Below are positions 3,147 to 27,545 of a stretch of 28,862 nucleotides of DNA, in pieces. The notes beneath the pieces are model-generated. The model was not told where the DNA came from, made no database searches, and saw only the letters and a program-made list of their open reading frames with translations. A program made the translations under genes and the position numbers. Each line of letters opens with the position of its first letter. Position 1 is the stretch's first letter. The DNA comes from an uncultured Candidatus Peribacteria bacterium (GTDB lineage: Bacteria > Patescibacteriota > Gracilibacteria > Peribacterales > Peribacteraceae), in assembly GCA_964457395.1 (NCBI GenBank), contig CAYWEU010000087.1, positions 1 to 28,862 on the forward strand, written 5' to 3'.

Positions 3147-3665
3147 ATGACAGCCGCAACACCTCCAGCCTCGTCCTTTTCGGATGAGGAAATGCTCATT
3201 ACCAAAGAAGGTCTGAAGAAGCTGAGGGAAGAGTTGGATTTCCTCAAGACAACCAAGCGCCAGGAGATCGCAGCGAGACTGAAAGAAGCCATCTCGTATG
3301 GCGACTTGTCCGAGAACGCCGAGTACGAGGAAGCCAAGAATGACCAGGCGTTCATCGAGGGCCGTATTTTGGAACTGGAAAATCAGATCAAGAACGCGCG
3401 GCTCATCAGCGATGCGGCGATCGCAAAAGCGTCGAAGGGCAAGATCATCGACATCAGTTCCACGGTGACCGTACGTAACAAGACCGACGACGACGAGCCC
3501 GAGACGTACACCATCGTCGGGAGCATGGAGGCCGACCCCATCGACCACAAGATCAGCAACGAGTCCCCCATCGGCAAGGCGCTACTGGGCCGCGAGAAAG
3601 GCGACGTCGTCGATGTCGTCGCACCTGCGGGAAAGTTTCAGTATGAGATTTTGAAAGTGGCATGA
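3147..3665 (+). CDS. greA: Transcription elongation factor GreA
   Basis: Contains ITKEGLKKLREEL, EAISYGDLSENAEYEEAK and ISNESPIGKALLG. Confidence 0.96.
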   Translation: MTAATPPASSFSDEEMLITKEGLKKLREELDFLKTTKRQEIAARLKEAISYGDLSENAEYEEAKNDQAFIEGRILELENQIKNARLISDAAIAKASKGKIIDISSTVTVRNKTDDDEPETYTIVGSMEADPIDHKISNESPIGKALLGREKGDVVDVVAPAGKFQYEILKVA

Positions 3666-3669
3666 TGAG

Positions 3670-3706
3670 TGGTCAGTAGTCAGCACACTGCCTACTGTCT
3701 ACTCCT
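3670..3706. repeat. Degenerate inverted heptamer-periodic element (CAGTAGT type)
   Basis: Left arm TGGTCAG TAGTCAG (3670-3683) matches the reverse complement of CTGCCTA CTGTCTA (3688-3701) at 11/14 positions. Confidence 0.55.
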
Positions 3707-3743
3707 CTTTCAAATCCCCTACTTTTCGCATATCCTGACGACC

Positions 3744-4166
3744 ATGGCAGATGACTCAACACCAACCGGCGCACAGGGACAAGCAAAGGCTCAAGCCTCC
3801 GCTAGCGCAGGACTGGCTATTCCGCCTGGAATTCAGGAGAAGTTTGGCCCGCTCCTGGAGCTCATCAAGGCATCCGAGAGTATGAATAATGAGGAACGAC
3901 AGTACTGGATCAACATCCTGCCGATCATGACCGCGGAACAACTGAAGAACTTGGAAGATATTCTGATGAACGAAAAAAAGCAGCTGGCGGCGATCGACGA
4001 GAAATACAGCAAAGAAGTGTCTGCACTGGGCGACGGTGTGTCGCTCGAGACCATGGAAAAGTCTCTCAAGGAAAAGCGAAAACAACGCACAGACCAGGAG
4101 CGCAACGCCGCGGATCAAGAACAGCAGAAAGAAAAGGATATTTTGGAGCAGATACAAAGTTCGTAA
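3744..4166 (+). CDS. Hypothetical alpha-helical/coiled-coil protein
   Basis: Start moved from 3669 to ATG 3744 (MADDSTPTG...), which follows TTTCAA-17-TATCCT-7. Ordered core LLELIKASESMNNEERQYWINILPIM is followed by a charged coiled coil. Confidence 0.8.
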   Translation: MADDSTPTGAQGQAKAQASASAGLAIPPGIQEKFGPLLELIKASESMNNEERQYWINILPIMTAEQLKNLEDILMNEKKQLAAIDEKYSKEVSALGDGVSLETMEKSLKEKRKQRTDQERNAADQEQQKEKDILEQIQSS

Positions 4167-6921: not shown

Positions 6922-7979
6922 GCGATTCTCAACTCTACTCCGGCTGGAATTCGACCGACGATGCACCGGAGCAGGCAGTGCCCGTACACAGCGTGCCGAG
7001 CTCTGCCACATCTGCAGCCTCGATGCAGCCGGGACCAAACTACGCAGTCCACGGGGCAGGGATGTCGGACCGCGGGCGCAGACAATTGTCGGCAGTCAGC
7101 GGCATCGCCACCGTTATAGTGCTCGCATTGCTCTTCTCTGTCGGCGCGGACGCGCTGCGAGGCGATTTGGGAATGGGCAACGAAGCAACAACCGTGACGA
7201 TCAACGACCTCGGAGAATTTGTTCCTACGACCGTGACGCTCTCTCCGGGAGACAAATTGATCGTCCAAAACAACAACGCCAACCCGCAGGTACTCAAAGC
7301 GTCCGACAGCAAGCAGGATGTGATGGGCACGCAAGTGCTCTTCGACCGTCCGTTCGAGTTTACTGTACCTGCCTCCGCAGCCGGAAACACGTACGAGTAT
7401 TTCTCCGAAACGCTGCCCGAAAGCAGCACACTCACGCTGGTCATTCTCGCTAACGCCGCGTCCGCGCGAGCAGCCTCGTCGACTTCCTCGGCGTCATCTG
7501 CAGTTGCAGGAGCCGTGGATATTCCGATCCCCTCACATTTGGGCTTGGTTGCCGTATCGTCTGTGTCATCGTCTTCGTCGATGCGCACAGCGGTAACACT
7601 TGCAATGCAAAGTTCACGTGCGACGACGACTGTCGCTCCACCCACACAAAACGGAACAGCCGTGATCGACGTCGGTATGGTCAAGACTACCACGCATGCA
7701 GCCGCACCGGACTTTAGCGACAATGCAACAAACATCCCGACAAATCCGTTTACCGTTGGCAATCTACGAACCGCACTCGAGACCGGCATTTTGACCCCAG
7801 GCAAGAAACCAACAAAGGCACCGGTAAACACTGCCGCATTGCACTCCGGCGCTCCTCTCATGGCTATCAAAAAGCCGAACATGAACGCGCAGACCGGCCC
7901 GGGTGTGTGGATAGCCCTCGTTGCAGCACTTGGCTTGTTCTCGCTTGCGTACAGGCTTTTCGTGAACCACAGAGCGTAG
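6918..7979 (+). CDS. Surface protein with cupredoxin-like fold (no Cu ligands), Ser/Ala/Thr linker and C-terminal TM
   Basis: N-terminal TM, then VTINDLGEFVPTTVTLSPGDKLIVQN...YEYFS (cupredoxin-like pattern), a low-complexity linker, and tail NAQTGP + TM + R. ATGA overlap with the cohesin gene. Confidence 0.7.
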   Translation: MSDSQLYSGWNSTDDAPEQAVPVHSVPSSATSAASMQPGPNYAVHGAGMSDRGRRQLSAVSGIATVIVLALLFSVGADALRGDLGMGNEATTVTINDLGEFVPTTVTLSPGDKLIVQNNNANPQVLKASDSKQDVMGTQVLFDRPFEFTVPASAAGNTYEYFSETLPESSTLTLVILANAASARAASSTSSASSAVAGAVDIPIPSHLGLVAVSSVSSSSSMRTAVTLAMQSSRATTTVAPPTQNGTAVIDVGMVKTTTHAAAPDFSDNATNIPTNPFTVGNLRTALETGILTPGKKPTKAPVNTAALHSGAPLMAIKKPNMNAQTGPGVWIALVAALGLFSLAYRLFVNHRA

Positions 7980-8048
7980 GTGTAAGACTGCGATGCACCC
8001 GATGCTATCGGGCTTAAGGTAAACTTCCTTTATACTGCCACACTCGAT

Positions 8049-8573
8049 ATGGATATACGATTCGCAATTGGGCTTCTCGGTTCCCTCATCCTTGTTATCG
8101 GCGTTGCGACTACGGTTTCGAACATCAAGAACACGCTCTTCGCAATCGGTAATGCTTGCATGTTCCTCTACGCACTCCTCGGCTACCTCGATGGTGGTCC
8201 GATCTTCTTTCTCATTCTGCAAATTTTTGTCGCAATCTCAACCGTATCGATGCTACTCAAGGTGCCCGATGCATATGACACCCCGTTGCTCGCGGTCAGC
8301 GGACTTGCGTTGGTTATATGGTCTCTCTCTCTTTTCGAGGGATATGGTACGGCAATCTTCGTGGTGGGACTCGTGCTGCTTGGCATCGGTTTCGCTATGG
8401 ATACCGGTACGATGAAACGCGAGATTGCACTGATGGGGGGTAGTGCTGTGATTGCGATCTTCTCTATCCTGATGCGCGATTGGATATTCATCGGTCTCAA
8501 TGTTCTCTTCGCCGCTCTCTCCTTCGTCAACATTCTACGGCTAATGCATAAGCCAACTACTGTCAGAACATAA
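8049..8573 (+). CDS. Small polytopic membrane protein (about 7 TM, internal duplication)
   Basis: 174 aa, almost entirely hydrophobic helices. TATACT lies 12 nt upstream of the ATG. Confidence 0.8.
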   Translation: MDIRFAIGLLGSLILVIGVATTVSNIKNTLFAIGNACMFLYALLGYLDGGPIFFLILQIFVAISTVSMLLKVPDAYDTPLLAVSGLALVIWSLSLFEGYGTAIFVVGLVLLGIGFAMDTGTMKREIALMGGSAVIAIFSILMRDWIFIGLNVLFAALSFVNILRLMHKPTTVRT

Positions 8574-8659
8574 TGGTGGGCCGGGCTGGACTCGAACCAG
8601 CGAAGGCGTAAGCCAGCAGATTTACAGTCTGCCCCGTTTGACCGCTTCGGTACCGACCC
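8574..8659 (-). tRNA. tRNA-Tyr (GTA)
   Basis: Reverse complement is GGGTCGGTACCGAAGCGGTCAAACGGGGCAGACTGTAAATCTGCTGGCTTACGCCTTCGCTGGTTCGAGTCCAGCCCGGCCCACCA, with acceptor stem, anticodon loop CTGTAAA, long variable arm, TTCGA loop and encoded CCA. Confidence 0.97.
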
Positions 8660-8663
8660 ACGA

Positions 8664-8698
8664 ATGAATTATGAATGAAGACGTATGAATTAAGAAGA
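8664..8698. repeat. Heptamer-periodic array (ATGAATT type) directly upstream of tRNA-Tyr
   Basis: ATGAATT ATGAATG AAGACGT ATGAATT AAGAAGA in strict 7-nt phase; only one arm is evident. Confidence 0.65.
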
Positions 8699-8791
8699 GG
8701 AAGTTTTATTAAATACCGGCTTCACGACAGGCGATATCAGAAGGGAACTGGTATTATTCCGACCGACGATCGCTTTTTCCAACATTGTCGG

Positions 8792-9343
8792 CTATACCTG
8801 TTTGCCTTTCTCGATGTCGTATTCCATCGCATAAGCATCTTCGTCGAGATCCTCGTAATAGCCGCGCACAACGCTTGTAGCCCGAAAGCCTTGAGCACGA
8901 AAGAAAAGCTGTGCACCGAAATTTTTCTCGCGCAAGAGAAGATCGATTTTGCTGCGCCGCTGCAGCGAAAGTTTATCGATCAATGTGGAAACCATTCGCG
9001 TTGCAATACCGAGTCTCCGGTACTGTGGATGAACGGCTATATTGAGTACGTTGATTTCTTTCTTTTGCAATGCATACACCATATAGCCAAGGATTGTCGT
9101 ATCGACTTCGATCACCTTGAGCATACAATTTCTGTACTGTTTCAAGCGTTTAAAAACGTCTTCGGACCAGCAGCCATAATCCCCGAAACTCTCTTGTTCG
9201 ATTCGCAAGACTTGTGGCAAATGGCGGTCCTGTAAATAACGAACATTTGTTTTCAGCGGCTCTGTTTTCATTTTTACAACATTGGCCTGATCAGATAACT
9301 GATCAGCTGAATCCGGTTTTCTGGTGGAGAAAAAGTTTCTCAT
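8792..9343 (-). CDS. RimI-like GNAT N-acetyltransferase
   Basis: Contains LPQVLRIEQESF, VLNIAVHPQYRRLGIA (acetyl-CoA motif A), AQLFFRAQGF and YYEDLDEDAYAM. Confidence 0.88.
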   Translation of the reverse strand: MRNFFSTRKPDSADQLSDQANVVKMKTEPLKTNVRYLQDRHLPQVLRIEQESFGDYGCWSEDVFKRLKQYRNCMLKVIEVDTTILGYMVYALQKKEINVLNIAVHPQYRRLGIATRMVSTLIDKLSLQRRSKIDLLLREKNFGAQLFFRAQGFRATSVVRGYYEDLDEDAYAMEYDIEKGKQV

Positions 9344-9409
9344 ACATGTATTTATAGACCATTTTTTATACTATGCAAGAAATTCGCTTTAACGAACACT
9401 TTTCTGCAC

Positions 9410-10324
9410 TCATGCATTATCAGAATCTTCTCGAGACGAAATCTCTCCAGGAATGGAATAGATCATGACATAGGCGTCTTCGCCATCCTCAAAGTGTTTC
9501 GGCAGCGTTTCTGTTGCGCGGAAATTCTGGGAGCGTAAGAAAATTTGCCCATCAAGATCCGTCTCTCTCAATTGAAACTGAATCTGAGTGCGCCTATGGC
9601 TCGAAAGTTTGCCGACTAGTTTCTGGATCATCTGCGAGCCGACACCCAGACCACGACAGTGAGGCGCCACTCCCATATTGATCACTTCTAAATAACTTTT
9701 ATGCAGCTCATATATCATGAAGCCGATTATCACATCTTGGCATTCAGACACCATGCCTATGCAGTTTCGCAAGCGCAAAGCTTGAATAAAATCATCTTCA
9801 AGCCAGGGATAGTCGCAACTCAACTGCTCTATTGTCAGAACTTCGGGCATGTCTCTACGGGTCATCCATCGAATATCCACACACGCTTTCCCGATTTTTA
9901 CCTTCTTCTCAGGCAGAAGATACTCTTGTTTCACGTTCTGCAGCGAGTGTGGACTTCGGGGCATTCGCATATGGATCAACGCGGCATCGAGCAGGATATT
10001 CATTTCTTGCAAGATCACCTGTATCCGCTGAACAGAAGCAATCGGACTCAATGCATTGAGTCGTATGCGAAAGTCCCAAGCAAATTCCGGTGGCAGCCTG
10101 ACCATCACCTGCTTGTCTTTCAGAATATTGCTTCCGCTTTCTTGCAGTCGCTTCGCCAATGAAGCGAAGTCCGCCATTCTGCCATCGACGATGTTTTGTA
10201 TATCCGCAAGCGCCGTACGCACATGGAACTTTCCTCGTTCAGCGACTTCGTCGTTCTCCAAGTCTCTATTACTCAGTACATCAACAGCATTCTCTCTCCG
10301 GCCTATGTGCTTCTGTCCTGACAT
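9410..10324 (-). CDS. RimI-like GNAT N-acetyltransferase with about 150-aa N-terminal extension
   Basis: C-terminal half contains IRWMTRRDMPEVLTIEQ, LRLRNCIGMV, GFMIYELHK, VAPHCRGLGVG and EDAYVM. TAAAAT lies 6 nt upstream of the ATG. Confidence 0.88.
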   Translation of the reverse strand: MSGQKHIGRRENAVDVLSNRDLENDEVAERGKFHVRTALADIQNIVDGRMADFASLAKRLQESGSNILKDKQVMVRLPPEFAWDFRIRLNALSPIASVQRIQVILQEMNILLDAALIHMRMPRSPHSLQNVKQEYLLPEKKVKIGKACVDIRWMTRRDMPEVLTIEQLSCDYPWLEDDFIQALRLRNCIGMVSECQDVIIGFMIYELHKSYLEVINMGVAPHCRGLGVGSQMIQKLVGKLSSHRRTQIQFQLRETDLDGQIFLRSQNFRATETLPKHFEDGEDAYVMIYSIPGEISSREDSDNA

Positions 10325-11624: not shown

Positions 11625-11654
11625 TGAAAGAAGTTGGACGAAGGGTACTAATAC

Positions 11655-12881
11655 TTATTCATAACGCAAAGCTTCCATCGGATGCAGCGCCGCTGCCTTT
11701 CTTGCTGGGGAAATGCCAAAAACAATACCAGTAATGACAGCCATCAGTAGAGACACGACGATCGCTCCGGTCGACACGCTAAAATGATATGTGGAGAGCA
11801 AGCTGCCAACGAGCAGTGACGCGAAAAACGCGAGCACGATGCCGAGCACAATGCCGATGATTCCGCCGATGACCGTGAGCACGATCGACTCGCAGAGAAA
11901 CTGCAGCAAGATGTCTCGATGCAAGGCACCCAGCGCCTTGCGCAGGCCGATCTCGCGCGTGCGCTCCGTCACGGAGACCAACATGATGTTCATGATGCCG
12001 ATGCCGCCGACAACCAGCGAGATCGTGGCGATGGTCGTGATGAACGCCGTGAGGCCAACAGAGACAATGCTGAGGATCTGGCTGGCTTGTTCGGATGAGC
12101 GCACGATAAAGTCGTCTTCCGTCGGGTCGTCAATCGGATTGTCGATGTTGTGTCGCTGCCGAAGCAATGATTTAACGTCATCGAACGCGATGTCGAAGCT
12201 GCCGGTGGCCTTCATGGTGATGTAATTGACGAACTTCTGGCCGGTGACGATTTTCGCGAGCGTGAACGGAACGTAGATGCGGTCGTCGGCGTTCTGGAAA
12301 AACTGAGAACCGAGCGGCTTGGACAGGCCGATGACGGTGTAATGCTGTTCGCCAATCTTGACGCGCTTGCCGATGGGGTCCGTGAGTCCGAACAGTTTCT
12401 CCTGCGCATCAGGAGCGAGCACCGCAACGGACTTGGCACCGTTGTTGTCGCTCGCATCCAGAAAGCGGCCACGCTCGGGTGCGATGTTCTGGTTCTCGAA
12501 GAATTCCGTCGTCACGCCGAAGACCTGCGGATGCGCTTCTTCGTTGCCGTACGACGAAGTGCCCGGGATAAACACCACCGGCGCGACAGTCGTGATGGTC
12601 TTGAGTTTTTCCAGCTCGCGCACATCCTCGAACGTCAGGCTGTCATGGCCGGTGGATACGGCGTTGGGGCCGCCTTGCTGCTGACCGGGGAAGATGACCA
12701 TGCTTTTGGCTCCGAGACTGCTGATTTGACCCAGTATGACGCCTTTCATGCTATCCCCTATCGAGCTCATGAGCACGACGGAACCAACACCGATGATGAT
12801 GCCGAGCATGGTCAGTAGCGACCGTCCGACGTTGGCAGTCACACCTTTGAAGGCCGAATGGAAGGTATCGTTGAGACGCAT
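11655..12881 (-). CDS. ABC exporter permease, MacB/FtsX family (first copy)
   Basis: Same MacB motifs as the downstream paralog, ending PARKAAALHPMEALRYE. Confidence 0.93.
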   Translation of the reverse strand: MRLNDTFHSAFKGVTANVGRSLLTMLGIIIGVGSVVLMSSIGDSMKGVILGQISSLGAKSMVIFPGQQQGGPNAVSTGHDSLTFEDVRELEKLKTITTVAPVVFIPGTSSYGNEEAHPQVFGVTTEFFENQNIAPERGRFLDASDNNGAKSVAVLAPDAQEKLFGLTDPIGKRVKIGEQHYTVIGLSKPLGSQFFQNADDRIYVPFTLAKIVTGQKFVNYITMKATGSFDIAFDDVKSLLRQRHNIDNPIDDPTEDDFIVRSSEQASQILSIVSVGLTAFITTIATISLVVGGIGIMNIMLVSVTERTREIGLRKALGALHRDILLQFLCESIVLTVIGGIIGIVLGIVLAFFASLLVGSLLSTYHFSVSTGAIVVSLLMAVITGIVFGISPARKAAALHPMEALRYE

Positions 12882-12886
12882 GCGCG

Positions 12887-12930
12887 AAAATTTGAAATTT
12901 GAAATTTACAATTTTTAATTATTTCAATTT
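12887..12930. repeat. Heptamer-periodic array (GAAATTT type) containing the ATPase stop codon
   Basis: AAAATTT GAAATTT GAAATTT ACAATTT TTAATTA. The minus-strand TAA at 12919-12921 lies within it. Confidence 0.65.
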
Positions 12931-13644
12931 GTTACTCCTTCCTGCAATGACTCGCGCAAAATCTTTTTTATCAGACTCAATTCTCCCATCTTTGATTCTG
13001 ATGATCCTGCGCGCATGTGCCGCAGTCGCGCTCTCGTGAGTCACCAGGATGATGGTGTGACCGTCTTCGTTGAGTTTCTGCAGCGCCTGCATCACCGCGA
13101 TGCCGGACGCGGAGTCCAGGTTGCCTGTGGGCTCATCGGCGAAGATGACATCCGGGTCTGTCACCAGAGAACGGGCGATGGCCACACGCTGCTTCTGTCC
13201 GCCGGAGAGCTGGCTGCTCAGATAATCTTTGCGATCGGTCAGACCTACGGCTTCCACTGCCTTGAGCGCCCTTTCGAGCCGCTGCGACTCCGGAATCGTC
13301 GGGTGGTAGAGCAGAGGCAGCAACACGTTTTGCAGCACAGTCGTCCTGGGCAGCAAATTAAACGCTTGAAAGACGAAACTGACTCTGGTTGCGCGTATTC
13401 GCGCAAGTGCGTCATCGTTCATGTTTATCGTCGGCTCGCCCTGGAACAAATACTGCCCGCCGGTCTGCATGTCGAGAAATCCAAGAATGTGCATCAGTGT
13501 CGACTTGCCAGACCCCGAGGGTCCCATGATCGCCACGAACTCGCCTTTCTCGATGGTTACATTGATATCGAACAGCACGGGGGTTTCTACTTCGTCATTG
13601 AAATACGATTTCGAGAGATTGATGGTTTGAATGAGAGAGGACAT
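12919..13644 (-). CDS. ABC transporter ATP-binding protein (LolD/MacB-type)
   Basis: Walker [10 protein letters not shown], signature [15 protein letters not shown], Walker [13 protein letters not shown]-loop VTHE. Confidence 0.96.
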
Positions 13645-13653
13645 GAGTGCGAC

Positions 13654-13751
13654 AGAATTACGAATTAGGAATTAAGGAATTAGGAGTACGTATTGATTCT
13701 GAATAAAATTTCTGAATGATGACAAGTGGAGAATTCTTAATTCTTAATTCG
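13654..13751. repeat. Inverted heptamer-periodic element (GAATTA type) between MFP and ATPase genes
   Basis: Left arm AGAATTA CGAATTA GGAATTA (A)GGAATTA; right arm GAATTCT TAATTCT TAATTCG is reverse-complementary to left-arm units. The MFP's last codons ITN* lie in the right arm. Confidence 0.8.
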
Positions 13752-17317: not shown

Positions 17318-17357
17318 TGCACGGCCCATGGTAACAGATGGTAAGAGAAAGCTGGAA

Positions 17358-17430
17358 AGAATTAAGAAGTAAGCATTAAGCATTAAGAACAACAAGTATT
17401 CCTAATTCTTACTTCTTAATCCATAATTCC
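17358..17430. repeat. Inverted heptamer-periodic element (AGAATTA type) in a divergent promoter region
   Basis: ATTAAGAAGTAAGCATTA (17361-17378) matches the reverse complement of TAATTCTTACTTCTTAAT (17403-17420) at 17/18 positions; units are in 7-nt phase on both arms. Confidence 0.85.
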
Positions 17431-22008: not shown

Positions 22009-25000
22009 TCAAGCCTGTTCTTGGTCTTGCAGTTGCGAGAAATCCAGATTTTTCACCTTCGTCCATACTGCTGTAATCAGCTTCCGCAGATCACTTTTCT
22101 CGGCCATCGTGACTGAAAATTCGCGACGGATGGGTTCCTCGCCACGCTCGCCGATGAAGTCGAGCGCGAAGACCTGGGGTACCAGCAGCGGATCGGAGAG
22201 TTCGAGGAGCAAAGCATAGAACACCAGCTGGCGGAAGAGCTCTCCCTCGCCCGTGCGCGAGATTTTGCCCGGCTCCAGTCCGCCGCGGATCTCGGATTCG
22301 GCCTTGGGCCGACCGGTCTTGTAATCGATGACGATGGCATCGGCAGAGGTTTCGGAAAATCGGTCTATGCGGTCGATCTTGCCCTTGATGGCGTCGTCGC
22401 CAAGTTCGCTGCGATAGTCGCGCTCCACCGCATGCAGAACAGGCGTCTCACTCTCCAGCCGCTCGGCGAAGTAGGCCGGCAACGCAACCTCTGCTTGGGA
22501 TAAGAGGCGGCTGCGCTGGACGTCGGTCAATGCATTGCGCTCGGTGAGATTCCACTGAAAGGCACGCAGGAAATCCTGTAGCGAAAACTCGGTCCCCTTT
22601 TGCTGGGCGACCGCCCATTCCTTCAGCGCCCAGTGCACTGCGGTGCCGTACCCCATCGACAGAATTTTCTTCTCATCGTACGCCTCGGGCTGGCCGAGGA
22701 GGTCGACGCGCCGAAACTCCAGCGGATCGCGCAGAAAGCGTGTCAGCGACGTCGGCGACAGCGCGAAGGTCTTTATCCGCTCAGTCAAATACGCACGCAG
22801 CTCTGCGTCCATTTCTCGCGTTGGCTGGAGGAGCAGGAGCGATGCCTCACTGGGATTCTTCAGCACACCGTCACGCTCGGCAAGCGGACCAGCTTCGGCG
22901 AAGAAGGCCGACGGGGAAACCATTCTGCTTCGCTCGCCGACGGCGAATTCACGCGGACAAACAAAGAGGAGCTCACGCTTGGCGCGGGTCATGGCCACGT
23001 ACGTCACGCGCCGTTCATCTTGGTGCTTCTCGAAACTCTTCTGATCCTTCTGCCATCCGAAGAGCAAATCCTCAGGGATCGACAGCATCGAGGGATTGCG
23101 GCGGCGATCCCAGTGACCATCGCGAAAACTGCTGAGGATGACGGTATGGAACTCGAGACCCTTGCTCTGGTGCGCGGTGATGAGCCGAACGCCGGCGCTG
23201 ACCAGATGCGGCAACCGGTACGTGACACGCACTTGTGAGAACTGGGGATCTGCATAGAGCGCAAGATCGGCGATGAACTCGGCAAGCGACAGCGAGGGAT
23301 GGTCGAGGCAGCGCTGCTTGGCGAAGTTGAAGAACGCTTCGATGGCGGCGAGGTCGAGGGGATCGAGAGACAAGCGGGTAGCGGATAGCGAATAGCGGTT
23401 AACATCTTTGCTACTCGCTACCCGCTTATCGCTTACCGCTTGCGTAAGTCCGCACTCTCGCAACACATGCTCGACCGTTTCGAGCACCGTCCGGATCTGC
23501 TGCTTTTGAGCCAAGTCCAACAGCGTGTCGCGGGCGCGGATGAGCGACAGAGAGTCGGTCAGCGGCAAGCTCAGTGTCTCCAGCTCGAGGAGCGTGTCGT
23601 GGGAGCTGCGTTCCCGCTCGCGTGCGCTCGCCACAACGCGCGCGATGTCCGCAGGGTGACAGCCGAAGCAGTCGCAGGCGAGGGCTGGCAGCAGAGCACT
23701 CGACGTTGTCATGCGAACAAGGCTCCTAAGGATCGTTACCGCCTGCGAAACAATCGGATGCGTGAGCAGGTCAGACTTGCCCTCCAGGATGACCGGAATG
23801 TTTCGTGCGCGCAGAACATCGTAGAGTGGAAAGAGCTCCGCGTTGGTCTGGACCAACACGGCAAGTTCCTCAGGTGCAATGCCAGACTTCAGTCGTTCCT
23901 CGACAAGATCCGCAATCAACCACGACTCAGCGGCATCGGAGACGGCGCGCAGCAACACGGGCTCCGTGCCCTTCTCCTTCGTCGCGGCGATCAAGTCTTT
24001 TGTCAGCCCCGAGATGCGACCCACAAGTCGCTCTTCGTTATGGGCAATCAATCGTCCGGCGGCATCCAGGATGGACTGCGTCGAACGGTAGTTCGTTGTC
24101 AGAGCGATGACAGGAGCCTGCGGAAAGCGCGCATGGAAGTCGAGCATGTGTTCCAGATTCGCACCCTGAAAACGGTAAATGGCTTGATCGTCGTCTCCCA
24201 CCAGCAAAAAGTTCGGATCGTTCGGCACCGCATCGTAGGTGGTGAGCCGCTCGATCACCCGCCACTGCGCGCCGTTTAAATCCTGTGCCTCATCGACCAG
24301 GATGTACTGGTAGCGCTCTTGCATTGACAGTAGCATCCATTCCTCTTCGGCCAGCGCCTGCAGGACGACCAGAATCATATCGTCGTAGTCGTAGGCCCCG
24401 CGCGCGGTAAGCGCCTGGGCGTACTGATCGAAGATATCGACCAACTCGCGGAACTTGCGCGCGGCGAGGAGATTTTTCTCGTGCTGCTTGGTGCCTTTGC
24501 GACTCTTGCCTGCCATCACCTTCTCATACTCGTCAGCGACACGCCGCAAGTCGGCAAGCGTTTTTCCTTCGCGCTTGCAATCACTGATCCTCGACAAGAT
24601 GTCGGGGATCCGCCCGTAGGGATCCTTGGGATTGATCAACGCGCCGGGCGACACAGCATCGATCACGCCCTGGAGCAACTGGTAACGCTGGACATCGGAG
24701 AGCTGCTGCCGGGCCGCCCAGTCCGAGAACGCCACCGGGTGACGATCGATGATGGAGGCGCAGAATCCGTGGATAGTGCTGATGGTCACGCCGTACGCAT
24801 CGGCGCCGATGTACGCGCGCAGCCGCTCGCGCATGGCAGTCGCTCCGCTCACCGAGAACGTCAGGCACAGGATGTTGCCCGGCCGGATCTGCGTTTTGCG
24901 CAGAATATTTGCAACACGCATGGCAACGACCTGCGTTTTGCCTGTCCCCGGGCCTGCGACGACCATGACAGGGCCTTCGATGGCCTCCACGGCAGTGCGC

Positions 25001-25044
25001 TGAGCGGCGTTGAGCAATTGCCATTGTTTCTCAAAATCGGGCAT
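22009..25044 (-). CDS. SF1A (UvrD/PcrA-type) helicase fused to C-terminal PD-(D/E)xK RecB-like nuclease
   Basis: Helicase motifs AGPGTGKT, VDEAQD, VGDDDQAIYRFQGA, TNYRS, TAHQSKGLEF and ERRVTYVAMTRAK; nuclease motifs GKIDRID...IDYKTG...QLVFY. Start at ATG 25044, 6 nt after TACAAT. Confidence 0.93.
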   Translation of the reverse strand: MPDFEKQWQLLNAAQRTAVEAIEGPVMVVAGPGTGKTQVVAMRVANILRKTQIRPGNILCLTFSVSGATAMRERLRAYIGADAYGVTISTIHGFCASIIDRHPVAFSDWAARQQLSDVQRYQLLQGVIDAVSPGALINPKDPYGRIPDILSRISDCKREGKTLADLRRVADEYEKVMAGKSRKGTKQHEKNLLAARKFRELVDIFDQYAQALTARGAYDYDDMILVVLQALAEEEWMLLSMQERYQYILVDEAQDLNGAQWRVIERLTTYDAVPNDPNFLLVGDDDQAIYRFQGANLEHMLDFHARFPQAPVIALTTNYRSTQSILDAAGRLIAHNEERLVGRISGLTKDLIAATKEKGTEPVLLRAVSDAAESWLIADLVEERLKSGIAPEELAVLVQTNAELFPLYDVLRARNIPVILEGKSDLLTHPIVSQAVTILRSLVRMTTSSALLPALACDCFGCHPADIARVVASARERERSSHDTLLELETLSLPLTDSLSLIRARDTLLDLAQKQQIRTVLETVEHVLRECGLTQAVSDKRVASSKDVNRYSLSATRLSLDPLDLAAIEAFFNFAKQRCLDHPSLSLAEFIADLALYADPQFSQVRVTYRLPHLVSAGVRLITAHQSKGLEFHTVILSSFRDGHWDRRRNPSMLSIPEDLLFGWQKDQKSFEKHQDERRVTYVAMTRAKRELLFVCPREFAVGERSRMVSPSAFFAEAGPLAERDGVLKNPSEASLLLLQPTREMDAELRAYLTERIKTFALSPTSLTRFLRDPLEFRRVDLLGQPEAYDEKKILSMGYGTAVHWALKEWAVAQQKGTEFSLQDFLRAFQWNLTERNALTDVQRSRLLSQAEVALPAYFAERLESETPVLHAVERDYRSELGDDAIKGKIDRIDRFSETSADAIVIDYKTGRPKAESEIRGGLEPGKISRTGEGELFRQLVFYALLLELSDPLLVPQVFALDFIGERGEEPIRREFSVTMAEKSDLRKLITAVWTKVKNLDFSQLQDQEQA
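23372..23440. repeat. Inverted heptamer-periodic element (AGCGGAT type) lying in frame inside the helicase CDS
   Basis: AGCGGGT AGCGGAT AGCGAAT AGCGGTT, spacer, GCTACTC GCTACCC GCTTATC GCTTACC. 23372-23389 matches the reverse complement of 23410-23427 at 16/18 positions. Confidence 0.85.
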
Positions 25045-25081
25045 AGAGGGATTGTACACTGAAAGAATCGGAATTTTTAAT

Positions 25082-25966: not shown

Positions 25967-27376
25967 TTACGCGTTCCTGTTTTCGTCCATAGTGTACGCG
26001 CAACGATCACACTTGCGAAAGGTTTTTCCGGCTTGATGAATTTCGACCAGCGTACCCTTGCGGCACTCCGGGCACAGGTTGCCTGTCATGAAGTTCGGCA
26101 TGGCGAAGCCGCTGCCTTTCCCGGCGCCGTACTCGCGGATGCATGCGGAACGCGGATGATCGCGCAGCTTCTGCAGAACCTTGGCCTCGATCTGACGGAT
26201 GCGTTCGCGGGTCACACTGAACTCTTTGCCGACTTCCTCCAGCGTGTGGCCAATGCCATCTTTCAGCCCAAAACGCATTTCGATGATCTTGCGTTCTCTG
26301 GGTGTCAAATACTCGAGCATCGCATGCACGTTCTCTTTGCGCAGCTGGCGGTTGGTGGCATCGAAAGGATTCACTGCTTCTTCGTCCTCGATAAAGTCTC
26401 CCAGCTTGCTGTCTTCCTCGGACCCCACGGGAGCTTCGAGCGAAATGATATCCTGAGAAATTTTTTGAATGTGGCGCACCTTCTTGATGTCCATCTCCAT
26501 TTCGACTGCCAGCTCCTCGACCGTTGGCTCGCGTCCTAGTTCTTGTACCAGCCGACGCTGTGTGTGGGTGAGCTTGTTAATGGTCTCGACCATGTGCACA
26601 GGGATACGGATGGTGCGCGCCTGGTCGGCGATAGCGCGCGTGATGGCCTGACGGATCCACCACGTGGCGTACGTGGAGAACTTGAACCCGCGCTCTGGGT
26701 CGAACTTCTCGACGGCACGGAAGAGACCGATGTTGCCTTCTTGAATCAAATCCAAAAACGATAATCCTCTGCCAATATATTTTTTTGCGATGGAGACAAC
26801 CAGACGCAGGTTGGCCTCGGCAAGCTGCTGCTTGGCACTCGAGTCGCCTTTGCGGATGCGCCGAGCCAACTCGACTTCTTTGCGCGCGTCGATGAGCGGA
26901 ACACGACCGATTTCGGACAGATACATGCGTACCGAGTCGTTGCTGATCTCGAGCAAATCCACTTCGCGCTCCTTGCGCCGCTTCTTGTCGGCCTCAGTTG
27001 TCTGCTTCTCGTCTTTTAAGCGAATACCCGCCGTCGCAACGACTTCGAGCGATTCATCGTCGCTATCTGCCGCAGTGATGGCCCCAGTGCCGGAATCTTC
27101 TTCCGGCGACTGTGTGCTCTTGCCGCTGGATTTCCGCTGCCAAATGAGCGTGTCTTTGACATCGATAACGTCAACGCCAAGGTCGACAAAGAGCGTGTAG
27201 ACATCGTCGAGCAAGTCGATATTTTCCTCGGCATTCGGCACAGCCTGCAAGATTTCCTGATGCGTGACATAGCGCTGTTCACGCCCCTTTTTTACAAGGT
27301 GCTTGATCGCTTCGGGGAACGCCTTCAAGTCAGCGTCCGTTGGCTGATGGATGAAACTACGTGGATGTGAAGCCAT
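25967..27376 (-). CDS. rpoD: Primary RNA polymerase sigma factor RpoD/SigA with C-terminal Cys4 extension
   Basis: Region 1.1; region 1.2 [11 protein letters not shown]; region 2 [12 protein letters not shown]...[10 protein letters not shown]...[30 protein letters not shown]; region 4 [24 protein letters not shown]. Start at MASHP (27376), downstream of TATACT 27399-27394. Confidence 0.97.
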
Positions 27377-27545
27377 GTGAAGAGCGAAAAGAGAGTATAC
27401 GCAGTCCATGCCAAATACAAGCGATGTTGAGGAAGTCGGGAAGGAGCGCATTCATTTTGAGTGCAGCCTTCCCTGCGGCCGTCTTGGCACCGCCCTTCTT
27501 TCCACTCTCTCGATTGGCCGTAAGTTGCGCATCGGAAACTGCAAT
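27357..27545 (-). pseudogene. Probable remnant of a small basic 'QxxANRxN...GxKTxxGK...NALxHGL'-type gene
   Basis: Not in the ORF track (no ATG; first codon ATT). Reads (I)[47 protein letters not shown]..., then runs over the rpoD promoter and start. Confidence 0.5.

Follow-up and report, generated by a model that had tools for sequence, protein, structure and literature searches.

Inverted heptamer arrays in a Peribacteria genome and an in-frame array within a UvrD/PcrA-type helicase-nuclease gene

The stretch of DNA considered here (hereafter the window) comprises 28,862 nucleotides (nt) of contig CAYWEU010000087.1, from an uncultured Candidatus Peribacteria bacterium. On its minus strand, at 22009..25059, lies an intact open reading frame (ORF) for a 1016-residue superfamily 1 (SF1) helicase of the UvrD/PcrA type with a C-terminal PD-(D/E)XK nuclease, and inside this gene, at 23371-23442, lies a palindrome of 72 bases that is built from 7-nt units. 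Pfam recognizes UvrD-helicase (9e-60), UvrD_C (6e-31), and PDDEXK_1 (2e-18) in the host protein, and its best match in the PDB is PcrA 1PJR (4.6e-59, over the helicase core), from which it differs by the additional nuclease domain. All columns that are invariant in 60 orthologues, including the Walker A and B motifs, are kept. The homologues of the protein carry the names Peregrinibacteria or Peribacteria, lineages that form part of the Candidate Phyla Radiation (CPR).

The palindrome consists of two arms of four heptamers each. On the plus strand, arm 1 (23374-23401) reads GCGGGTA (23374-23380), GCGGATA (23381-23387), GCGAATA (23388-23394), and GCGGTTA (23395-23401), with its TA dinucleotides spaced 7-7-7. 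The arms are separated by a 10-nt spacer, ACATCTTTGC, at 23402-23411, and arm 2 (23412-23439) follows with TACTCGC (23412-23418), TACCCGC (23419-23425), TTATCGC (23426-23432), and TTACCGC (23433-23439); an outer CAA/TTG pair carries the palindrome out to its full length. The architecture can be written as four GCGnnTA units, the spacer, and four TAnnCGC units, in which a constant GCG and a constant TA flank two variable positions. An inverted-repeat search returns arms of 34 nt with 71% complementarity and arms of 25-27 nt with 80-81% complementarity in registers offset by 7, and Tandem Repeats Finder reports period-7 arrays at 23373-23398 and 23422-23441. When the whole window is scanned with the unit pattern GCGNNTAGCGNNTAGCG, allowing up to two mismatches, all seven matches fall in this element, compared with 1.02 expected and a maximum of three in 100 shuffles scanned in the same way. 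The heptamer periodicity exceeds chance. As RNA, the sense strand forms a hairpin of -44.1 kcal/mol (z = -5.2; 0 of 200 shuffles fold as well), and over 83 nt the sense strand reaches -40.5 kcal/mol versus -35.1 kcal/mol for the antisense strand, both strands folding well. The element has no G-quadruplex potential, and the Rfam 15 covariance models, applied at the gathering score to the whole window, give a tRNA at 8577-8659 as their sole match and none for the element.

The helicase frame runs through the element as ...HVLRECGLTQ AVSDKRVASSKDVNRYSLSATRL SLDPLDLAAIEAFF..., with AVSDKRVASSKDVNRYSLSATRL leading into SLDPLDL..., and the palindrome itself is read as QAVSDKRVASSKDVNRYSLSATRL, which corresponds to residues 540-563 of the ORF. 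Arm 1 is free of stops on the coding strand (...AAC CGC TAT TCG CTA TCC GCT ACC C..). Arm 2 reads GCGGTAA GCGATAA GCGGGTA GCGAGTA on that strand or, in an offset register, GGTAAGC GATAAGC GGGTAGC GAGTAGC, and its TAA, TAA, TAG, and TAG occupy frames 1, 2, 1, and 2, none of them being in frame 0; in the one unit where positions 3-5 coincide with a codon, that codon is GTA. The stops take up this alternation because the TA slides one base from unit 2 to unit 3. An 8-nt unit was considered as a general means of correcting the frame and was rejected for this element, since the GCG of the arm is strictly 7-periodic and the TA alone moves. Of the six possible frames across the element, that of the helicase alone is free of stops. 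An earlier note on this DNA had already placed the element, its heptamers, and its translation here, and had described all the stop triplets as out of frame, with GTA in the in-frame unit; the letters of the window and the ORF agree with it on each point.

Comparison with orthologues indicates that the element was added to a pre-existing gene. In a MAFFT alignment of 120 orthologues, the extra residues are present in the window protein alone and absent from the other 119. The nearest orthologue, P0002 (73% identity, from the syntenic locus L001), reads ...GLSQIGKSPDPLDL... at the insert site, and a codon-level DNA alignment of the window with L001 shows one 60-nt gap there. The in-frame insertion is thus lineage-specific, and the converse, an ancestral loop lost by every other lineage, was rejected on parsimony from the same alignment. 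An in-frame gain with a matching gap in the orthologues had been anticipated in the earlier note, and both were found, but its count of about 23 new residues does not stand: the net gain over the orthologues is 20 residues (60 nt), and the palindrome spans 24 codons.

Disorder is predicted for the residues that were gained. An AlphaFold2 model of the host protein, computed from a 60-sequence alignment, has a mean predicted local distance difference test score (pLDDT) of 88.1 and a predicted template modelling score (pTM) of 0.82, and the only internal segment with a pLDDT below 50 comprises residues 539-558 (P0001 numbering, in which the insert extends from A536 to L558). The model places the insert between helices 536-541 and 562-581, and alignment with PcrA 1PJR places it between ...EEVLDKSGY... 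and ...LENLDEF..., an interval that, going by established PcrA structures, we take to lie within the 2B domain; a low-confidence loop in the 2B region is also what the earlier note had expected. PcrA has approximately 19 residues at this loop, whereas it is normally very short in the Peregrinibacteria orthologues, with 2-4 residues in most and around 20 or more in some. In L122, a locus of another Peregrinibacterium, the same helicase loop contains a different palindrome, which is neither built of heptamers nor periodic (CCCCTCTCCCGC...GCGGGAGAGGGG, translated PNPSPASSSLRSERGRGE), so that palindromic DNA has entered this loop on more than one occasion.

Arrays of the same unit are not confined to this lineage. 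A search for three GCGnnTA units followed by a further GCG in 185,579 species genomes and in IMG/VR yielded arrays in at least 119 genome stretches from many bacterial phyla, where we estimate that about 17 would be expected by chance, and in 113 viral stretches of IMG/VR, several contigs having multiple copies. Among the matches listed, 32 of 121 genome arrays have an inverted partner within 110 nt, compared with 0 of 97 control regions taken 600 nt away; for viral arrays, the corresponding figures are 50 of 121 and 1 of 109.

Several of these and related repeats are in frame within other genes. In L122, a complete two-armed heptamer element with a 14-nt period lies in frame in the gene for leucyl-tRNA synthetase (LeuRS; 1268-1339, translated AGSQWPVASGKKPHATSHMPQAA), and the insert is missing from L127 and from LeuRS sequences in the PDB. 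A different unit, AATTCTC, forms an array of four in frame at the same LeuRS loop in L124, and the gene for the RsmB/F methyltransferase of L124 also has the AATTCTC unit in frame, with a gain of seven residues; the two heptamer arrays are at 124-161 and 4033-4077. The LeuRS and RsmB/F inserts thus belong to Peregrinibacteria other than that of the window. Two further genes hold one-armed arrays of the CGCTACA type in frame, one for a Parcubacteria Mur ligase (L044, 843-905, translated ATRYTLHATR) and one for a Saccharibacteria prepilin peptidase (L069, 7300-7356, translated DATRYTLDA). Finally, on an IMG/VR contig (L238), the gene for an SU10-type phage portal protein contains, at 2771-2908, a GCGnnTA element that is complete, two-armed, and in frame; the protein is matched by the Pfam portal profile with E = 1e-188 (633 residues over 591 profile positions). 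Of five two-armed elements situated in long open frames, four were not counted as lying in coding sequences: one in L183 and two in L185 are in ORFs whose translations look spurious, and one in L150 appears, from our reading of the translation, to lie ahead of what looks like the start of a phage capsid-like ORF. The non-heptamer palindromes of L122 form a separate group. The RsmB/F gene of L122 has, at ~3740-3830, a 36-residue in-frame insert derived from such a palindrome, with the same PSP...GRG signature as the insert in its helicase loop (~11650-11700). This palindrome type (CCCTCTCCC...GGGAGAGGG) is consequently in frame in two housekeeping genes of L122, and P0081, a helicase orthologue whose loop is also long at this site, and P0079 resemble the PSP...GRG inserts at the protein level.

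The open frame of the helicase element is unlikely to be accidental. Among the 492 frames of 82 two-armed GCGnnTA elements, just 37 (7.5%) are free of stops, and 32 elements have any open frame at all, such that random insertion would usually kill a gene. Both complete in-frame GCGnnTA elements, those in the helicase and in the L238 portal gene, have the TAA or TAG triplets of the forward arm in frames 1, 2, 1, and 2 and never in frame 0, and they reach this arrangement in different ways, the portal element (whose stops are TAGs) by an 8-nt unit and the helicase element by the TA shift within a 7-nt unit. Off-phase steps of the indel type are rare in unconstrained arms, where 3 of 147 spacings are of 15 or 22 nt and none is of 8 nt. 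In the LeuRS element of L122, the in-frame unit carries TGG in the position of TAG. Taken together, the data support filtering for an open frame, as the earlier note had proposed, acting either through the insertions that survive or through mutations after insertion; irregular units are, however, present in the intergenic E3 as well. As a separate observation, many GCGAATA arrays in L010, L043, L075, and L119 alternate with GCGAATG units, a replacement of TAG by TGG of the kind that opens a frame.

The helicase element is one of several heptamer arrays in the window. Autocorrelation of the whole window was scanned at lags 4-12 with thresholds of 16 and 17 matches in 21. At 16/21, six segments were obtained at lag 7 and none at lags 4-6 or 8-12, and 50 shuffles gave none at 17/21. 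There are five array sites in 28.9 kb, E1-E5, of which E5 is the helicase element and E1-E4 sit between genes or touch gene ends only. E1 (3663-3703) is two-armed (AGTGGTC AGTAGTC followed by the reverse complement of AGTAGAC AGTAGGC) and begins at the stop codon of greA (3663-3665). E2 (12885-12925), an AAATTTG array, fills the spacer from the stop codon of an ABC ATPase gene (12919-12921) to the start of a MacB-type permease gene (12881), both on the minus strand. E3 (13655-13750) has two nGAATTA arms, 13655-13685 and 13732-13750, in the interval between the genes for an HlyD-type adaptor and the ABC ATPase, and the stop codon of the adaptor gene (13744-13746) falls within the right arm. E4 (17357-17430) has two AGAATTA-type arms between divergent RmlD-like and YgjP-like genes. 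The unit is different at each site (AGTAGnC, AAATTTG, nGAATTA, AGAATTA, and GCGnnTA for E1 to E5), so that what the five have in common is architecture and not sequence. At the position orthologous to E3, two-armed heptamer elements are also present in two more distant Peregrinibacteria, L122, with TGAATTA units, and L123, with GTATTTC units, and the nearest relative, L001, has no arrays across 33 kb of synteny.

Further observations concern the surroundings of these sites. Other Peregrinibacteria contigs are syntenic with the neighborhood of the helicase gene, which includes a sigma-70 gene, Ham1, FtsK, and a MarR-HlyD-ABC-MacB operon. The sigma-70 homologue, a primary sigma factor encoded on the minus strand at 25967-27451, ends in a zinc-ribbon-like C-terminal tail with two CxxC pairs (CPECRKG...CDRCAY), and its L001 orthologue is 26 residues shorter. 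Between the gene for a 286-residue protein and the helicase gene, L001 has an extra gene for an 843-residue protein without a Pfam match (7017-9548), which has no counterpart at that position in the window. Next to the tRNA gene at 8577-8659, which is on the minus strand, lies a weak period-7 ATGAATT array (8664-8696, 65% matches) that overlaps the start of ORF 8675..9235. In L123, period-8 arrays lie at 13213-13345 in the spacer between two MacB-type permease genes, and some spacers of the MacB operon would accordingly hold octamer rather than heptamer arrays.

The architecture itself has precedents. Rehm et al. (2015) described GGGAATC-type heptamer arrays in Xanthomonas, with approximately 185 per genome, mostly of four units, and 70-75 convergent pairs; 89-93% are intergenic near the upstream ORF, 7-11% are at least partly intragenic, and they are not conserved between species (PMC4692102). 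The periodic two-armed element, which the earlier note contrasted with those of Rickettsia, is therefore not a new kind, since convergent inverted heptamer arrays are already published. As in Xanthomonas, E1-E5 are tandem heptamers with fixed and variable positions, often of about four units and often in close convergent pairs, mostly intergenic near the end of the upstream gene, not conserved between relatives, and with a minority overlapping ORFs. The helicase element in particular shares the tandem 7-nt units with fixed and variable positions and the convergent arrays, here 10 nt apart. As to dispersal over the genome, the window contains five sites in 28.9 kb, four of them intergenic or at gene ends. 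The unit sequences of the helicase element are different, however, as is the phylum, and it lacks G-quadruplex potential. TAACTGA repeats in Beggiatoaceae are occasionally found in ORFs, chiefly at the periphery (MacGregor 2015; PMC4679880), and cyanobacterial STRR heptamers are related repeats. Intragenic arrays in the literature overlap a gene in part or encode the ends of proteins, whereas the helicase gene carries a complete two-armed element in the interior of a conserved protein with catalytic activity. Our literature search found no heptamer or palindromic repeats reported for Peregrinibacteria or Peribacteria, and the Peribacteria genome paper is silent on them.

A second point of comparison is offered by the Rickettsia palindromic elements (RPEs), which Ogata et al. 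reportedly described in protein-coding genes in 2000. RPEs form families of ~100-150 bp that are defined by sequence similarity among many copies. The helicase element resembles them in being palindromic repeat DNA that lies in frame in a conserved gene, is absent from orthologues, and is read as additional surface residues that the fold and function can accommodate, and also in that such inserts recur in several housekeeping genes (helicase, LeuRS, RsmB/F, and Mur ligase) of a lineage with reduced genomes. It differs in its length of 72 nt, its Peregrinibacterium host, and the nature of the shared feature, which is a pair of 7-nt periodic arms without any sequence relationship; no similar copy that would define a family was found in the window, in L001 and L002, or in JGI metagenomes. 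The helicase element works like an RPE, yet is not one, and the parallel with Rickettsia drawn in the earlier note is apt, given that housekeeping and phage proteins offer further examples of in-frame elements. Miniature inverted-repeat transposable elements have terminal inverted repeats flanked by a target-site duplication, but no direct repeat flanks the palindrome, whose borders are left ambiguous by a nearest empty site of 73% identity. Repeats of the REP type are single hairpins of 20-40 nt with a 5' GTAG, not 7-nt periodic, extragenic by definition, present in more than 100 copies, and accompanied by a gene for the REP-associated tyrosine transposase (RAYT). REP and BIME repeats associated with RAYT are, by one account, short and imperfectly palindromic, frequently form inverted pairs, and are located within operons and at the ends of genes (PMC2817692). 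GTAG is found in E1 and, within the helicase element, in two of its eight units, but the helicase arms are periodic arrays, the element is intragenic, and no Y1 transposase gene occurs in the window. What is new compared with all these systems is a complete two-armed array amid a catalytic protein, its recurrence in CPR housekeeping genes and a phage portal gene, and the phase adjustments by which stops are avoided.

As to origin, we consider it probable that a pre-formed heptamer-array element inserted in a single event into a permissive loop, was kept as an open frame, and is translated as a disordered passenger. It would have come from a widespread, architecture-defined class of inverted heptamer arrays, which in this Peribacteria genome would normally reside at gene ends and between operon genes, and it would have survived by landing in a tolerant loop in the one stop-free frame of six. 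The passenger peptide would need no function of its own; the sense RNA may form a strong hairpin that the ribosome would have to unwind, any effect on expression being a by-product. Transposition in trans, capture during break repair, and template switching are candidate routes of movement or copying. One-step arrival is favored by the presence of the AATTCTC unit in two different coding sequences of one genome, L124. A number of observations weigh against single-event insertion. The window holds no second copy of the GCGnnTA type, and no transposase or RAYT gene was detected in Pfam scans of 25 window ORFs; nor was a flanking direct repeat found, at borders that 73% identity does not allow to be fixed, and the description of the element as mobile in the earlier note is not borne out by these results. 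An exact search of JGI metagenomes with the 26-nt spacer plus inner arm gave no match, but it did not recover the window either, implying that the source lies outside the collection and that the search is uninformative about the source genome. Each of the five window elements has its own unit, which fits local generation as well as a mobile family, and the different units at the E3 site and the LeuRS loop in different genomes could reflect turnover in situ instead of repeated insertion. Translation through the element, moreover, is deduced from its open frame alone.

Some of these points speak at the same time for an origin in place, in which slippage during replication expanded a short heptamer seed in the loop and fold-back or template-switch synthesis supplied the second arm. 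The lack of a target-site duplication, transposase, or sibling copy is in keeping with it, as are the varying units at orthologous sites, and a different unit in every window element points to a sequence-independent process. In addition, the RsmB/F insert of L124 is exactly 7 residues, or 21 nt, or three units, and the over-representation of heptamer simple repeats in bacteria has been ascribed to polymerase slippage, at least as the work of Mrazek (2007) is cited in PMC4692102. We nevertheless regard such local growth as unlikely because each 7-nt slippage step would presumably have thrown out of frame a conserved gene that still encodes every invariant residue. Growth could have proceeded in jumps of 21 nt alone, and 21 does not divide the net gain of 60 nt. 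Moreover, the nearest relative has neither a periodic seed at the site nor arrays in the 33 kb of synteny, and in its 4+4 units the element matches the complete architecture of intergenic members. That the insert was selected for a function, with the 20-residue loop modulating the 2B domain or recruiting a partner, or the mRNA hairpin tuning expression as an RNase III target or ribosome pause, seems to us improbable. The 2B domain is known to be regulatory in PcrA, UvrD, and Rep, the hairpin is strong and folds better in the sense than in the antisense strand, and the conserved operon positions of intergenic members suggest that the class can be functional; against this, the insert is missing from all 119 orthologues and predicted to be disordered, the loop is occupied by unrelated sequence in other lineages, and the sequence conservation by which selection could be tested does not exist. 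Least of all do we expect an artefact or a dead gene, that is, an assembly or amplification chimera or a helicase pseudogene that tolerates anything. The element is admittedly known from a single metagenomic contig, and the protein cluster of the helicase has one member, the next match being at 73% identity. However, the arms are imperfect and periodic, unlike those of fold-back chimeras, the insert length is a multiple of three within an open frame of 1016 residues, and no invariant helicase or nuclease residue has been lost. Four further arrays of the same class are on the same contig, and comparable in-frame elements exist in independent assemblies from ENA, NCBI, and IMG/VR. An assembly artefact is therefore unlikely.

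A more far-reaching proposal, which we put forward tentatively and ourselves think doubtful, is that the inverted heptamer arrays form a cross-phylum class of elements in bacteria and phages that is conserved in architecture and not in sequence, either self-propagating or generated by the cell, that enters coding sequences in one step and is filtered for an open frame by a phase skip of the TA or by a change of TAG to TGG, and that would be a recurrent and hitherto overlooked source of new surface loops in essential CPR and viral proteins. If true, this class would constitute a second, mechanistically distinct case of the RPE phenomenon, and if it is mobile, a new kind of small mobile element common to bacteria and phages. 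The helicase insert offers a checkable example of non-coding repeat DNA turned into protein sequence in a conserved enzyme, outside Rickettsia and from another type of element, and is of relevance to structure prediction and to the nature and origin of inverted heptamer arrays. For annotation, it means that odd low-complexity loops of CPR proteins may be repeat-derived. Together with the LeuRS, RsmB/F, Mur ligase, and phage portal cases, it suggests that compact CPR genomes repeatedly tolerate such inserts at a few permissive loops.

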